Assembly (NCBI GenBank): GCA_947630055.1
Contig: CANRGA010000001.1
Span: 10,195-74,194 of the forward strand
Length of the DNA stretch: 64,000 nt
Direction of reading: 5' to 3'
From: an uncultured Bacilli bacterium
Lineage (GTDB): Bacteria; Bacillota_I; Bacilli_A; RF39; UBA660
Both the position numbers and the translations under genes were made by a program. A model generated the notes under the pieces. The model searched no databases, was not told where the DNA came from, and saw only the letters and a list, made by a program, of their open reading frames with translations. This document shows, piece by piece, positions 2,222-38,670 of this stretch. How positions within the stretch are numbered: position 1 is the stretch's first letter; the number at the start of each line of letters is the position of its first letter.

Positions 2222-2250
2222 TTGATAATAAAAATATGGTATGTTAAAAT
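2222..2250 (+). promoter_or_regulatory. Candidate sigma-A promoter for the pilus/adhesin operon
   Basis: TTGATA, 17-nt spacer, TAAAAT, with TG one nt upstream of the -10 (extended -10). Confidence 0.45.
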
Positions 2251-2278
2251 TAATGATAGAGAGTAGGTGTGTTTTTGT

Positions 2279-2980
2279 ATGAAAAAACTTGCTGCATTTT
2301 TTGCTATGTGCGCTTTAATTACAATGCCAGTTAATGCTGCATGTTCTTATACGGAAAAAGCAGAGGCTAATACAAAGGCCGCAAATGTAAAAATAAATTA
2401 TGAGGTTGTTGAAGATAAACAAGAATCTGATATGGGTACTTCAATAAATGAATATTTTAAAATTAGTATTTTAAATGTAACTAAAGAGTTATATGTTGTA
2501 GTTAGTAATGATGTTACTAATGATAAAGTTACTTATACTTTTGATGATGCTAAAGATGGTGTAATAACATTTAATTGGGATAACATTGAAACTATTACCA
2601 ATTTTACATTTACTATTTATGCTTCAAATCAAACTCCATGCTATAATGAAGAATTAAAAACTATTAGAAAACAAACACCAAGATTTAATGACTTTTCTAA
2701 TAGAGCTATATGTGATGGTATGGAAGATTTTTATTTATGTCAAAAATATACAAATATTGCTGAAATAGATGAAAGTATGTTTATTGAAAAAGTAGCAAGT
2801 TTTAAAGATGGCAAAATCACTGAAGAAGGTAAAGATGCTGAAAAAGAGAAAAAAGGAAATAGCATAATAAGTTTCTTAAGAAAAAATAGATGGTATATAA
2901 TAGGTGGATTATTAGTAATAGCTACTGGATCAGGTGTAGCTATAGTAATAAGAAATAGAAAATACAGGGAGGTTAAATAG
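2279..2980 (+). CDS. Secreted, C-terminally membrane-anchored protein of unknown function
   Basis: Signal peptide MKKLAAFFAMCALITMPVNAA and C-terminal TM WYIIGGLLVIATGSGVAIVI followed by RNRKYR. The ATG at 2279 is preferred over the track GTG at 2267 because of its spacing to the RBS. Confidence 0.6.
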   Translation: MKKLAAFFAMCALITMPVNAACSYTEKAEANTKAANVKINYEVVEDKQESDMGTSINEYFKISILNVTKELYVVVSNDVTNDKVTYTFDDAKDGVITFNWDNIETITNFTFTIYASNQTPCYNEELKTIRKQTPRFNDFSNRAICDGMEDFYLCQKYTNIAEIDESMFIEKVASFKDGKITEEGKDAEKEKKGNSIISFLRKNRWYIIGGLLVIATGSGVAIVIRNRKYREVK

Positions 2981-2982
2981 TA

Positions 2983-36358: not shown

Positions 36359-36416
36359 TATTAATTTATTTTTCCTTATATTTATAGTATAATATTGGTG
36401 AATTGGGGAGATTTGT

Positions 36417-38636
36417 ATGAAGTTTAAGGTAGAAGCTAAAGACTTTTTCTTATTTGTAGTATATTGTATTATACTTCTTTATTTATGTGCTTTAGCAGTT
36501 TCTAATTTATTTTGCCTACTTAATTATGGTACATTTTATGGACTTCTTCCTTTAAGTGCTTTCTCTTTGCAATATTTACCATTTACTTTAGGATTATTCA
36601 TTGGGGCCTTAATTTTAATATTTACTAGTGTCTCTTCTTATATTTTTAATAAAGATAAAGGTAGTGGCTTTGGTATTAAAGTTAATAAAGAAAAAACTAG
36701 TGATGGTTATGCTAGATGGGCTAAAGATAAGGAGATAAAAACAGCTAATAAAGTTGTTAAAATTAATCCAACTGATAAAGTACTTACAGCTGGTGGAATT
36801 CCTTTAATTAGTAATCCAAAAGAAATATGGGTTGATAATAGTGATTATCATAATTTGGTAATAGGTTCTACTGGTAGTGGTAAAACTGAAAATTTAGTAT
36901 TTCCAATGGTAAATATCTTAGCTAAAAAAGGTGAAAGTATGATTATTACTGATCCTAAAGGTGAGATATATAGTAAAACTGCTAATAACTTAAAAGAACG
37001 TGGATATAAAATTATTGTTTTAAATTTTAGGGAACCAGGAAAAGGTAATGCTTGGAATCCTTTGGATATGCCTTATAAGTATTATAAGGAAGGTAATTAT
37101 GATAAAGCCACTGAACTTCTAGAAGATGTTTCTTTAAATATATTATACGATCCATCTAAAGGAAATGGTGATTCTGAATTCTGGGAAAAAGGATCAGCTG
37201 ATTACTTTTCAGGGTTAGCTATTGGATTATTCCAAGATGCATCGGAAAAAGAAATAAATTTAAATAGTATTAATTATATGAGTACTGTTGGTGAAGAAAG
37301 ATATGCTACTAGTAACTTTATAAAAGAATATTTTAATTTAAAAGGTAAAGAATCAAATGCTTATATGTTTGCTAATACAGTTATTAATGCTCCAAACGAT
37401 ACAAAGGGTGGTTTACTTTCAACATTTAGTCAAAAAATAAGAATGTTTTCTACTAAAGAAAATTTAGCGGAAATGCTTTCTTATAGTGACTTTGATATGC
37501 GTGACATTGGTAAAGGTAAAACTGCTGTATTTATGATTATTCATGATGAGAAAAAGACATATCATACATTGATGACTATTTTTATAAAACAAGTATATGA
37601 AACTCTTATTGATGTAGCGCAAGCTAATGGAGGAAAACTTCAATATCGTACTAATTTTATTTTAGATGAATTTGCTAATATGCCACCTCTTAAAGATGTT
37701 GATAGTATGGTATCAGCAGCAAGAAGTCGTGATATAAGATTTACTTTTATTATTCAAAACTTTGCTCAACTTAATGATGTATATGGTGAAGAAGTAGCAC
37801 AAGTAATTAGAGGTAATTGTGGTAATTTAATTTATTTAATTTCAACAGAACTTAAAGCCTTAGAAGAAATAAGTAAAATGTGTGGTGAAGTTAAATCAAA
37901 AGAAAAGGATAAAACTGCTTCAACTCCATTAGTTACAGTTAGTGATTTACAAAAATTAAAATTAGGTGAAGCAATTATTTTAAGACTTAGAATGAATCCA
38001 TTTAAAACAAAATATGCTCCTAATTTTAAAATAAATTGGGGAGAAGATTATCCACTAGCGACATATCCTACTAGGGAATTTCATCAAGTTGAATTATTTG
38101 ATTTAAAAAAATATGTTACAGAAGAAAAAAGAAAACGTATGATGAATAATACAAATAATGATGCTAATTCAATGATGCAACCAGGTGGAATAAGTCCATT
38201 TGGTATGGGTGGTGGCTTTGGTATGCCAGGTATGCCAGCTGGTAATCCAATGAATTCTTTAAATGGTTCAGCATCAAATCCTTTTGCTGGTGGCTTACAA
38301 AATATGGATATCGATGCTATGATGAAAGATATCGATCGTAAACTTAAAGAACTTGACGAAGAAGAAAAACGTCAAAAAGAAAAATTAAAGATGCAAAATC
38401 AAAAAATTACTAATGATTCACCATTTAAATTATCAGATGATACAGAATTGCCAGAATTAAAAGAAAAAGCATTAAATGAAGAACTTGATAAGGACATAAA
38501 AGAAAAAGAAGAGCCTAAAGATGAAAGTTCAAAAATAGATAAACCAAAAGTTAATATTGATGTTGATAGTGTTATTATGAATGAAAATGTAATAACTGAT
38601 GATGAATTTTTTGACGATTTCTTTGGTGATGAATAA
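36417..38636 (+). CDS. VirD4/TraG-type type IV coupling protein
   Basis: Two N-terminal TM helices, Walker A VIGSTGSGKTE, DPKGEIY, Walker B FILDEFANM. Gly/Met/Pro-rich and acidic C-terminal tail. Confidence 0.85.
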   Translation: MKFKVEAKDFFLFVVYCIILLYLCALAVSNLFCLLNYGTFYGLLPLSAFSLQYLPFTLGLFIGALILIFTSVSSYIFNKDKGSGFGIKVNKEKTSDGYARWAKDKEIKTANKVVKINPTDKVLTAGGIPLISNPKEIWVDNSDYHNLVIGSTGSGKTENLVFPMVNILAKKGESMIITDPKGEIYSKTANNLKERGYKIIVLNFREPGKGNAWNPLDMPYKYYKEGNYDKATELLEDVSLNILYDPSKGNGDSEFWEKGSADYFSGLAIGLFQDASEKEINLNSINYMSTVGEERYATSNFIKEYFNLKGKESNAYMFANTVINAPNDTKGGLLSTFSQKIRMFSTKENLAEMLSYSDFDMRDIGKGKTAVFMIIHDEKKTYHTLMTIFIKQVYETLIDVAQANGGKLQYRTNFILDEFANMPPLKDVDSMVSAARSRDIRFTFIIQNFAQLNDVYGEEVAQVIRGNCGNLIYLISTELKALEEISKMCGEVKSKEKDKTASTPLVTVSDLQKLKLGEAIILRLRMNPFKTKYAPNFKINWGEDYPLATYPTREFHQVELFDLKKYVTEEKRKRMMNNTNNDANSMMQPGGISPFGMGGGFGMPGMPAGNPMNSLNGSASNPFAGGLQNMDIDAMMKDIDRKLKELDEEEKRQKEKLKMQNQKITNDSPFKLSDDTELPELKEKALNEELDKDIKEKEEPKDESSKIDKPKVNIDVDSVIMNENVITDDEFFDDFFGDE

Positions 38637-38641
38637 ATTCA

Positions 38642-38670
38642 AAAAGTAATGTTAATTCATTACTTTTTTA
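38642..38670 (+). terminator. Intrinsic terminator ending the T4SS module
   Basis: aaaagtaatg-ttaatt-cattactttt followed by T residues. Confidence 0.65.

Follow-up and report, generated by a model that had tools for sequence, protein, structure and literature searches.

The stretch of DNA analysed here (the window) is 64,000 nucleotides long and comes from an uncultured Bacilli bacterium of the lineage RF39, family UBA660 (assembly GCA_947630055.1, contig CANRGA010000001.1, positions 10,195 to 74,194 of the forward strand). Between 2.2 and 38.7 kb it carries a Tad-like filament module and a type IV secretion system (T4SS) without a relaxase. Judged by its architecture and descent, this region is very probably a chromosomal, vertically inherited cell-surface machine of uncultured, genome-reduced gut Bacilli of the RF39 type, and not an integrative and conjugative element (ICE). 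With less assurance, we consider it probable that the machine is a domesticated, contact-dependent apparatus for transfer between cells that does not mobilise itself. The data establish the composition of the locus, its fixation in the chromosome, the absence of a relaxase from it, the purifying selection acting on it and its homology to plasmid transfer systems; contact-dependent transfer and its biological role we infer. RF39 bacteria are abundant and widespread in human and animal guts, and no member has been cultured. What is new is that a domesticated T4SS of the conjugation type, joined to a filament module of plasmid origin, has become fixed in a major gut lineage without cultured members. 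We found no literature linking RF39, RFN20 or related orders to T4SSs, Tad-like pili, conjugation or epibionts.

Gene content of the locus

All 56 non-nested open reading frames (ORFs) of at least 80 aa in the window were scanned against Pfam, and those of the region also against NCBIfam. The scans bore out nearly all the genes that an earlier reading of this DNA (the original prediction) had placed in the region, and every long ORF in it is intact. From the families matched, the second part of the region (22398-38636) is predicted to encode a complete monoderm (Gram-positive-type, MPF_FA/FATA-like) T4SS. Related loci are referred to by L numbers.

22398-22763, 22861-23970, 24153-24875 and 25714-26574, +: four VirB2-like (T4SS_pilin) paralogues; the first matches PF18895 (E 2.3e-4)
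24891-25619, +: polytopic membrane protein of the TMEM164 family inside the VirB2-like array; orthologues 42-43% identical at the same place in L008 and L021
26589-28862, +: VirB6-like polytopic channel protein, 757 aa; NCBIfam pLS20_p028 family, E 6.5e-6, far below the cut-off
28885-29205, +: VirB3-like (PrgI/TcpE) protein; TcpE 1.2e-4 and PrgI 5.7e-4, both below cut-offs
29177-29740 (N-domain) and 29740-31527 (ATPase), +: VirB4 ATPase in two translationally coupled, overlapping ORFs; Pfam and NCBIfam
31652-34504, +: VirB1-like cell-wall hydrolase, 950 aa; Peptidase_M23 8.8e-23, Phage_lysozyme2 1.2e-12, SpoIID 9e-5
34515-35438 and 35441-36358, +: two VirB8/TcpC-like paralogues, each with an N-terminal transmembrane helix and two NTF2-like domains
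36417-38636, +: VirD4-type coupling protein; T4SS-DNA_transf 4e-53 (181 bits), NCBIfam conju_CD1115 292.6 bits, above the cut-off of 250

The translations of the VirB2-like genes share a C-terminal hairpin, and three of the four have N-terminal extracellular Cys-rich domains. Across the lineage, where the copy number is 2-7 in relatives compared with 4 in the window, 51 of 140 VirB2-like paralogues match PF18895 (E ≤ 0.01) and 4 match T4SS_CagC, in agreement with the VirB2 call of the original prediction. Within the array we observe repeats of 80-84% identity (22814-22884 with 24094-24164, and 22864-22936 with 23981-24053): a copy of the 5' end of the second VirB2-like gene and of the sequence upstream of it precedes the third, together with an orphan 5' fragment at 23981-24053. 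The array looks like a series of duplicated cassettes, each with its own promoter-like region. In relatives, the N-terminal domains of VirB2-like proteins include Amidase_3 (three cases), VgrG3-like_C (two), Peptidase_C39_2 (two), Peptidase_M15_4, NlpC/P60 and Big_2. These fusions suggest pilin-like anchors joined to peptidoglycan hydrolases, with the bacterial cell wall as the target.

VirB4 matches P-loop_TraG, AAA_10 and CagE_TrbE_VirB in Pfam and, below the equivalog cut-offs, VirB4_plasma (4e-106) and conju_CD1110 (3e-53) in NCBIfam; the ORF for its N-domain is annotated as TraC-like in orthologues. The possibility that the two-ORF gene is a frameshift pseudogene was rejected, because the same split is present in all relatives, in a Virgibacillus plasmid and in pBMB67 (NC_009841), which represents here the pXO2/pAW63/pBT9727-type plasmids of the Bacillus cereus group. 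The split is ancestral and not a defect. Hydrolase orthologues lie 3' of VirB4 in relatives. The VirB6-like protein is fast-evolving (21-46% identity among relatives), and a PDB sequence search with the VirB8-like protein gave no match.

The first part of the region, 2279-13544, is a single co-directional gene block that encodes the filament module.

2279-2980, +: secreted protein with a C-terminal membrane anchor (233-237 aa); signal peptide and C-terminal transmembrane segment seen in the translation
2983-6807, +: giant secreted Cys-rich protein, 1274 aa, fast-evolving
6824-7231, +: DUF5411 small membrane protein; Pfam DUF5411 5.7e-53, median identity 57% in 59 loci
7243-8010, +: CpaB/RcpC (SAF)-like protein; Pfam RcpC 27.5 bits (cut-off 28.8), TIGR03177 38 bits (cut-off 71)
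8034-9125, +: secretion ATPase of the CpaF/TadA/VirB11 family; Pfam T2SSE 102 bits, above the cut-off
9144-10049 and 10049-10837, +: two polytopic TadB/TadC-like platform proteins; no Pfam match
10991-11269, 11286-11552, 11567-12079 and 12090-12551, +: four small pilin-like proteins; N-terminus M(K/R)E..G followed by a hydrophobic helix
12558-13544, +: TadZ/CpaE-like protein, 328 aa, with a degenerate Walker A motif (weak assignment); 36-81% identity in relatives

The gene for the anchored protein (24-36% identity in 44 related loci) always lies 5' of the giant gene, and the pair is duplicated in L115 and L122. The giant protein has no match in Pfam, NCBIfam or a PDB sequence search. Its positional orthologues are found 5' of DUF5411 across the lineage and are only 22-29% identical outside close relatives. 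Eleven aligned homologues share many invariant Cys, and an AlphaFold2 model from an 11-sequence alignment was uninformative (pLDDT 53). We presume that this protein is an adhesin or specificity determinant of the filament module. The CpaF-like ATPase is 76-87% identical across relatives (at least 80 loci) and scores below the cut-offs of the NCBIfam VirB11, TrbB and TadA models. The order of the pilin-like genes is kept in relatives, where the products of the third and fourth (pil3 and pil4) are 28-65% identical across loci; the pilin-like proteins match no family and are without the canonical Flp motif (G/XXXXEY). No match to a prepilin peptidase (peptidase A24 family) was obtained among the window ORFs. 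In three relatives (L157, L160 and L164), a HerA/FtsK-like ATPase (DUF87, 582-623 aa, opposite strand) and a sortase-domain protein are encoded directly 5' of the filament module; neither is found in the window.

Chromosomal setting and conservation

A VirB4 search, with one genome per species, returned at least 548 relatives, of which the best 80 (76-98% identical) were used to map loci. Nearly all of these 80 are metagenome-assembled genomes (MAGs) from gut or rumen, titled uncultured Bacilli, Tenericutes or Mycoplasmatota. "Firmicutes bacterium CAG:460" is among the VirB4 relatives; CAG-460 is placed as a genus in the RF39 family UBA660 (PMC13155120). A metagenome scan for the CpaF-like ATPase returned at least 368 relatives of 76-86% identity, many of them on human-gut contigs of 100-580 kb (up to 582 kb).

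Both sides of the locus are chromosomal. On the left, a metagenome contig that carries the end of the window (L001, positions 1-1590 identical at 100% to window positions 1590-1) and other identical contigs continue into genes for DUF6020, a glycosyltransferase, a histidine kinase and response regulator, LytR_cpsA_psr and LtaS, so that the flank is chromosomal for at least 7-10 kb. An independent 30.8-kb contig joins this flank to the two leftmost DUF1016 copies, the entire filament block and the start of a protease gene. One reading offered in the original prediction, an ICE with its DNA-processing genes to the left of the window, is refuted by this flank, which is ordinary chromosome with envelope genes. 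On the right, VirD4 is followed in the window and in relatives by rhodanese, VTT, three small ORFs, CoatF, CmpB and SDR, and this right flank recurs in about 27 species. Of 29 loci, 27 have rhodanese at most 1.5 kb from VirD4. Two long contigs, one of 171 kb (JGI) and one of 224 kb (Hadza), match the window beyond SDR as well, with Met-gamma-lyase, SecE and NusG. VirB4 identity correlates with rhodanese identity (Spearman 0.71, p = 4e-5) and with VirD4 identity (0.81). Because the flanks are syntenic and the identities fall together, we read this pattern as a locus inherited with the chromosome and not an element spreading among hosts.

The borders give the same picture. Base composition is about 26% GC across the whole window, with no break at 2.2 or 38.7 kb. 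No tRNA was found at either border and no att-like or direct repeats flank the region; every repeat that we found represents internal paralogy. The locus is syntenic across species and not present in some and absent from others, and the notion of a composite island was therefore abandoned.

The filament module and the T4SS belong together. Of the 16 VirB4 loci with a TadZ gene, 15 have a VirB2-like gene within 600 bp after it, and 24 CpaF loci show the same succession. The order across the lineage is anchored protein, giant protein, DUF5411, CpaB (one or two copies), CpaF, TadB, TadC, pilins, TadZ and VirB2-like, and several loci continue with VirB6, VirB3 and VirB4. Gene order thus indicates that the two form one conserved ancestral unit. 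Since TadZ abuts the first VirB2-like gene in about 15 species, the protease gene that separates them in the window appears to be a local insertion, and the DUF1016 gene beside it a separate one. This is at variance with the original prediction of three self-contained modules partitioned by DUF1016 genes. The comparison of related genomes that it had called for recovered the Tad-like module and the T4SS as one unit in many loci, while the protease and DUF1016 genes proved to be separate insertions and the genes are dispersed in some sub-lineages.

Several relatives depart from this layout in other ways. In L038, L041, L049, L051 and L057, the VirB2 and VirB6 genes 5' of VirB3 are replaced by another conserved block of about eight genes, which holds on the opposite strand a second T2SSE ATPase, 34% identical to CpaF. 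Two loci from a single bin (L005 and L015, Lapin-011__bin94) have VirB4 genes 96% and 90% identical to that of the window; they represent either a duplicated front half of the T4SS or a bin mixing two related strains.

Searches for a relaxase and for mobility genes

No relaxase family matches any of the 56 window ORFs in Pfam, nor does any integrase, primase, single-stranded DNA-binding protein, partition or replication family. The original prediction had reported the same absences in the 64 kb and had named tnpB as the sole exception among transposition genes; both statements hold. When the pBMB67 MobP3 relaxase served as tblastn query, neither the window nor about 2.4 Mb from 167 related loci gave a match. 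The 20 most recurrent gene clusters of the related loci that are not found in the window, analysed with Pfam, contain no relaxase or ICE-type integrase. They correspond to chromosomal functions: MscS, ADH, FemAB, glycosyltransferase, ABC exporter, UvrA, FtsW, sortase, CAAX protease and a HerA/FtsK-like ATPase. No relaxase was seen in Pfam-annotated VirD4 contexts, including loci with a lone VirD4. The single integrase encountered belongs to a prophage. In this locus (L170, 12372-21528 of CANRLB010000002.1), from a sister species with a VirD4 89% identical to that of the window, a prophage-like block with a phage integrase, an S24 cI-type repressor, Phage_rep_org_N and a DNA methylase lies directly 3' of VirD4, at the place that rhodanese occupies in the window. 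The position behind the T4SS terminator is perhaps an attachment site for phages.

Scans for consensus promoters and terminators are uninformative at 26% GC, with counts equal to those in shuffled sequence, and terminators were judged by RNA folding instead.

13547-13585, +: terminator-like hairpin and U-run ending the filament operon; z = -3.5
22337-22365, +: near-consensus promoter-like site (TTGACA-17-TAAAAT) 5' of the T4SS operon; sequence kept in L004 and L007
38642-38667, +: terminator-like hairpin and U-run 3' of VirD4; z = -1.2, weak and not significant alone

The promoter-like site is only suggestive, as such sites are no commoner than in shuffles. Each module had been predicted to end in a hairpin terminator or a DUF1016 copy: folding supports an AT-rich hairpin after the filament block, gives weak support to another AT-rich one after VirD4, and detects no hairpin or U-run terminator 3' of the protease gene.

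Selection on the locus

The ratio of nonsynonymous to synonymous substitution rates (dN/dS) was estimated against seven relatives; dS is about 0.4-1.3, near saturation, and the ratios are rough.

VirB4 ATPase: 0.03-0.11
TadB/C: 0.06-0.12
CpaF: 0.10
VirD4: 0.10-0.18
Flanking chromosomal genes: 0.19-0.49
Pilins: 0.25-0.40
VirB2-like: 0.25-0.55
VirB8-like: 0.39-0.70
Hydrolase: 0.40-0.77
VirB6: 0.54

The value for VirB4 lies below that of the flanking genes, and the surface parts (0.25-0.77) evolve fast. The relaxase-less T4SS and the filament module are co-inherited under strong purifying selection. With the long ORFs intact and dN/dS down to 0.03, decay of the locus is excluded. A comparison of the window (26589-36358 region) with its closest relative, L004, reveals a mosaic: VirB4 is 98% and VirD4 91% identical, whereas VirB6 is 41%, the hydrolase 56% and the VirB8-like proteins 56% identical. 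This suggests diversifying selection on the exposed parts of the T4SS, or their replacement by recombination or as cassettes.

The M26 protease, the DUF1016 copies and TnpB

The filament module and the T4SS are separated in the window by a protease gene and a DUF1016 gene, and further DUF1016 copies lie at the left end.

13801-21174, +: zinc metalloprotease of the M26 family, 2457 aa, membrane-anchored; Peptidase_M26_C 1.1e-31
3-92, -: DUF1016 fragment, by tblastn; also in L001 at 1622-1767
89-1267, -: DUF1016/YhcG gene of the PD-(D/E)XK nuclease family with a duplicated N-domain (copy a); DUF1016_N 1.1e-49, YhcG_C 2.1e-40
1457-2044, -: truncated DUF1016 with the N-domain only (copy b); DUF1016_N 1.8e-31, about 80% identical to part of copy a
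21354-22313, +: third DUF1016/YhcG copy (c), by Pfam; an independent insertion of about 1.1 kb
59721-60905: TnpB (OrfB_IS605 / Cas12f-like TNB), the only transposition-related gene in the window

The protease, predicted originally as a surface metalloprotease of about 2450 aa, is confirmed by its Peptidase_M26_C match (110.3 bits against a cut-off of 22, residues 1671-2455) and by the HExxH motif, which reads HETAH in the translation. Among the 80 VirB4 loci, its gene is confined to the window and L004 (95% identity). It is, on this distribution, a lineage-specific local insertion between the filament module and the T4SS and not a part of the machine.

At least four DUF1016 copies or fragments lie within 22 kb, with 60-80% aa identity to each other, which suggests local multiplication of the gene in this genome. 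L004 is without copy c: its protease gene is followed directly by the VirB2-like gene, and window positions 21197-22303 stand where L004 has a short spacer. In relatives, DUF1016 is rare, occurring at 8 places in 6 of the 80 VirB4 loci and in none of 80 CpaF loci. We considered DUF1016 as a conserved component, for partition or nicking, and rejected the idea because it is missing from the site in the nearest relative and from most related loci. Like the protease, the DUF1016 copies are read as later insertions at the level of the species. A short ORF just 5' of the protease gene (13640-13745, +; MKLKEDKNFIKDPYVLEFLDIKEKY...) is a candidate DUF1016 remnant that would mark the insertion site; we take it to resemble the start of the YhcG nuclease domain, an unconfirmed likeness (E = 0.1 against the window copies). 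The TnpB gene, without an adjacent TnpA, lies about 21 kb to the right of the T4SS amid housekeeping genes and appears unrelated to the locus.

Possible function and alternative explanations

In the mechanism that we propose, the filament and the fast-evolving surface proteins would make and specify contact with another cell, and the hydrolase would open the cell wall. A channel powered by VirB4 and VirD4 and decorated by VirB2-like proteins would then move a substrate between the cells without transfer of the locus itself. Candidate substrates are protein, DNA without a canonical relaxase, and metabolites. We favour such a contact-dependent apparatus because the locus shares its hallmarks with the T4SS of Patescibacteria: the VirB2-like array, the hydrolase-fused members of that array and the reduced genomes of RF39. 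These genomes are described as reduced and are reported to have no de novo nucleotide synthesis (PMC13155120). The original prediction had suggested a cell-contact apparatus made of filament, protease and T4SS. The idea survives in spirit, in that the filament and T4SS are co-inherited under purifying selection, but the protease is no conserved part. A conserved machine for contact and transfer offers a hypothesis for the lifestyle of RF39 and for its resistance to isolation, as these bacteria may need a partner cell, and the adhesins might serve as markers of partner specificity. It is conceivable, by analogy, that RF39-type gut Bacilli depend obligately on contact with other gut bacteria, as epibionts or parasites, through the filament, the hypervariable adhesins and the relaxase-less T4SS, a proposal that we hold only tentatively. 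If true, this would be a second, Bacillota version of the toolkit that is essential in Saccharibacteria, with a pXO2-like conjugation machine as its source, reached either independently or through shared ancestry.

Several points weigh against a domesticated transfer machine. The system is known here from sequence alone. In the Tad assignment, all parts except the ATPase score below threshold, and no prepilin peptidase is seen. Retention of VirD4 is expected of a system that transfers DNA. The relaxase searches covered the window and the related loci, with the approximately 950 ORFs of those loci that are not window-like sampled through the 20 recurrent clusters only, and a relaxase elsewhere in the genome or of a non-canonical kind is possible. 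In many species the genes are dispersed, with VirB2-B6-B3-B4 apart from hydrolase-B8-VirD4, which leaves joint functioning of filament and T4SS unproven. In dispersed sub-lineages, the Tad block and two VirB2-like genes lie between metallophosphatase and UvrA, and a lone VirD4 lies between UppS and a metallophosphatase-rhodanese pair. A scattered layout is also known from the rvh T4SS of Rickettsiales. Finally, a MAG bin may mix genomes: a few loci carry the bin label Methanobrevibacter or Muribaculaceae, and L005 and L015 share one bin.

The main rival, which we regard as unlikely but worth serious consideration, is a working conjugation of chromosomal DNA, of the Mycoplasma ICE-associated or Hfr-like kind, with the relaxase encoded elsewhere or replaced by an unrecognised nickase. 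By analogy with the MOBC relaxases, the DUF1016 nuclease of the PD-(D/E)XK family would be a candidate nickase, and DUF1016 copies with ParB-HTH-like N-domains adjoin the modules. However, DUF1016 is missing at the L004 site and present in 0 of 80 CpaF loci and 6 of 80 VirB4 loci, and so is no conserved component. VirD4 belongs to the conjugative CD1115 family and is kept under purifying selection, as this rival would predict, but in no context examined does a relaxase lie beside it. VirB3 and the two VirB4 proteins are collinear with the Mycoplasma ICE VirB4 model NF045975 at 355.7 bits, a score under the family cut-off of 590. Mycoplasmas do transfer chromosomal DNA, and most of their ICE genes are without outside homologues (PMC6030558, PMC12857230).

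We consider it improbable that the filament and T4SS act on the animal host, by attaching to mucus or epithelium, cleaving IgA or mucins with the M26 enzyme and delivering T4SS effectors as proposed for Streptococcus suis 89K. Every metagenome or MAG title that names a source indicates gut or rumen, the surface parts evolve as fast as they might under immune pressure, and a precedent for a Gram-positive T4SS that secretes effectors is known from S. suis (PMC12857230). An enzyme of the IgA1-protease family is indeed inserted between the modules, but it is found only in this species and its nearest relative, outside the conserved system. The peptidoglycan-hydrolase domains on VirB2-like paralogues of relatives point to a bacterial wall instead, and no effector candidates were identified. 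An ordinary ICE, an integrated plasmid or a decaying remnant, with its relaxase and integrase outside the window or recently lost, is effectively excluded. Conjugative-type T4SS genes, the conjugative plasmids as closest characterised relatives, the repeated DUF1016 copies and the nearby TnpB gene would suit such an element. Against it stand the chromosomal left flank and the right flank syntenic across species, borders without att repeats or tRNA and with the base composition of their surroundings, and intact long ORFs under purifying selection. A domesticated, vertically inherited machine for contact-dependent transfer remains our preferred explanation.

Comparison with known systems

The closest plasmid matches of VirB4 are on Bacillus thuringiensis plasmids (about 30% identity), and that of CpaF is on a Virgibacillus halodenitrificans plasmid (NZ_CP017963). 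Eight window proteins (DUF5411, CpaB, CpaF, TadB, TadC, VirB4N, VirB4C and VirD4) have collinear homologues on these plasmids, with identities of only 20-36%. In pBMB67, a first block encodes the MobP3 relaxase, VirD4 (CD1115 family), a VirB2-like ORF, TrbL, PrgI, a 227-aa ORF and VirB4; further on are an SLH protein, an 851-aa protein, a DUF5411-like protein, a SAF protein, a ParA-like ATPase, a T2SS/T4P ATPase, two polytopic proteins and small proteins including DUF4320. The order in the Virgibacillus plasmid is an isopeptide fimbrial protein, small ORFs, CpaF/VirB11, two ORFs, DUF4320, DUF5415 and TrbC/VirB2, followed later by VirD4, pLS20_p028, DUF5592, a short ORF and VirB4; MOBP relaxases are present. 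Both plasmids thus have the two parts seen in the window: a large surface protein, a DUF5411-like protein, SAF/CpaB (in pBMB67), CpaF, two polytopic proteins and small pilin-like proteins in one, and a T4SS with split VirB4 in the other. The pairing of a Tad-like filament with a Gram-positive T4SS, which the original prediction had called no textbook arrangement, is indeed not a textbook layout but does have this precedent.

Individual proteins agree with this correspondence. The giant protein is matched in position by the 851-aa protein of pBMB67, by the isopeptide fimbrial protein of the Virgibacillus plasmid and by a 1416-aa cell-surface protein of pAW63, which lies beside VirB11 in a tra region that also has VirB4 and VirD4 homologues (PMC1196294). 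Weak DUF5411 homologues occupy the same position in pBMB67 and the Virgibacillus plasmid. The CpaB-like protein is homologous to the SAF protein of pBMB67 (E 6e-16), and the best plasmid matches of the CpaF-like ATPase are Virgibacillus and Bacillus CpaF/VirB11 proteins. The two platform proteins have as their only homologues hyp320 (E 3e-8) and hyp325 (E 0.008) of pBMB67, at the same position. For the TadZ-like family, hhalign against the AAA_31 (ParA-like) protein of pBMB67 gave a marginal match in the P-loop region only (E 0.008). In the T4SS, VirB6 stands at the position of TrbL in pBMB67 and of pLS20_p028 in the Virgibacillus plasmid, and the position of VirB3 agrees with both. The plasmids differ in having MOBP/MobP3 relaxases and partition and replication genes, whereas the window locus is chromosomal, syntenic and relaxase-less. 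In pBMB67 the halves are in reverse order, the relaxase-VirD4-T4SS block coming before the filament module. The VirB2-like genes of the window are multiplied (4 copies) and fused to extracellular domains. Homology and gene order together indicate that the layout descends from the conjugation apparatus of pXO2/pAW63-type Bacillus plasmids, with loss of the relaxase.

Like Tad/Flp (type IVc) pili, the filament module combines in one operon a CpaF/TadA-type ATPase, a CpaB/RcpC-like protein, two platform proteins, small pilin-like proteins and a TadZ candidate. It differs in that only the ATPase passes a curated threshold, at superfamily level. The locus lacks the Flp G/XXXXEY motif and encodes neither a prepilin peptidase nor a secretin; DUF5411 and the giant Cys-rich protein are additional components.

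A second relationship is with the ICEs of mycoplasmas (ICEA; CDS17/CDS5; Mbov_0397 family), whose hosts belong to an order related to that of the window host. The window VirB3, VirB4N and VirB4C align collinearly to their single VirB4 protein, VirB3 with positions 2-97 of the model, and NF045975 is the best NCBIfam match of VirB4. This hints at kinship with the T4SSs of related Mollicutes and at a possible evolutionary link to Mycoplasma ICE T4SSs. Mycoplasma ICEs have inverted-repeat flanks, insert at random and use a DDE transposase; unlike the window locus, they are mobile and are without VirB1- and VirB8-like parts and a Tad-like module. These elements are associated with an unconventional transfer of chromosomal DNA; most ICEA genes are without homologues outside Mollicutes, and the transfer model assumes a relaxase (PMC6030558, PMC12857230). 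We presume that these ICEs encode no relaxase recognisable by homology.

By analogy, the closest functional counterpart appears to be the T4SS of Patescibacteria, which is chromosomal, MPF_FATA-derived and, in most clusters, relaxase-less, with an array of divergent VirB2-like pilins (PMC12102498, PMC12857230). We draw this likeness from published descriptions. The Patescibacteria (Saccharibacteria) system and that of the window have in common VirB1, B4, B8 and D4 and, with the VirB3- and VirB6-like candidates of the window, B3 and B6, a chromosomal and lineage-wide distribution without a relaxase, the VirB2-like array, a reduced-genome host with biosynthetic gaps and a type IV filament system alongside. 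They differ in phylum, the present host being an RF39-type member of Bacillota, and in the filament, which is Tad-like and linked to the T4SS here and a separate type IVa pilus there. In Southlakia epibionticum, the T4SS and type IV pili are essential for epibiotic growth (PMC12102498, PMC12857230); essentiality and an epibiotic lifestyle are thus demonstrated for Patescibacteria, while the RF39 system is known from its genes. In a 2025 review, the T4SSs of Patescibacteria, without a relaxase and with a VirB2 array, are called unique among monoderms (PMC12857230). The RF39 locus would be a second such system, with a traceable plasmid ancestor of the pXO2/pAW63 type.

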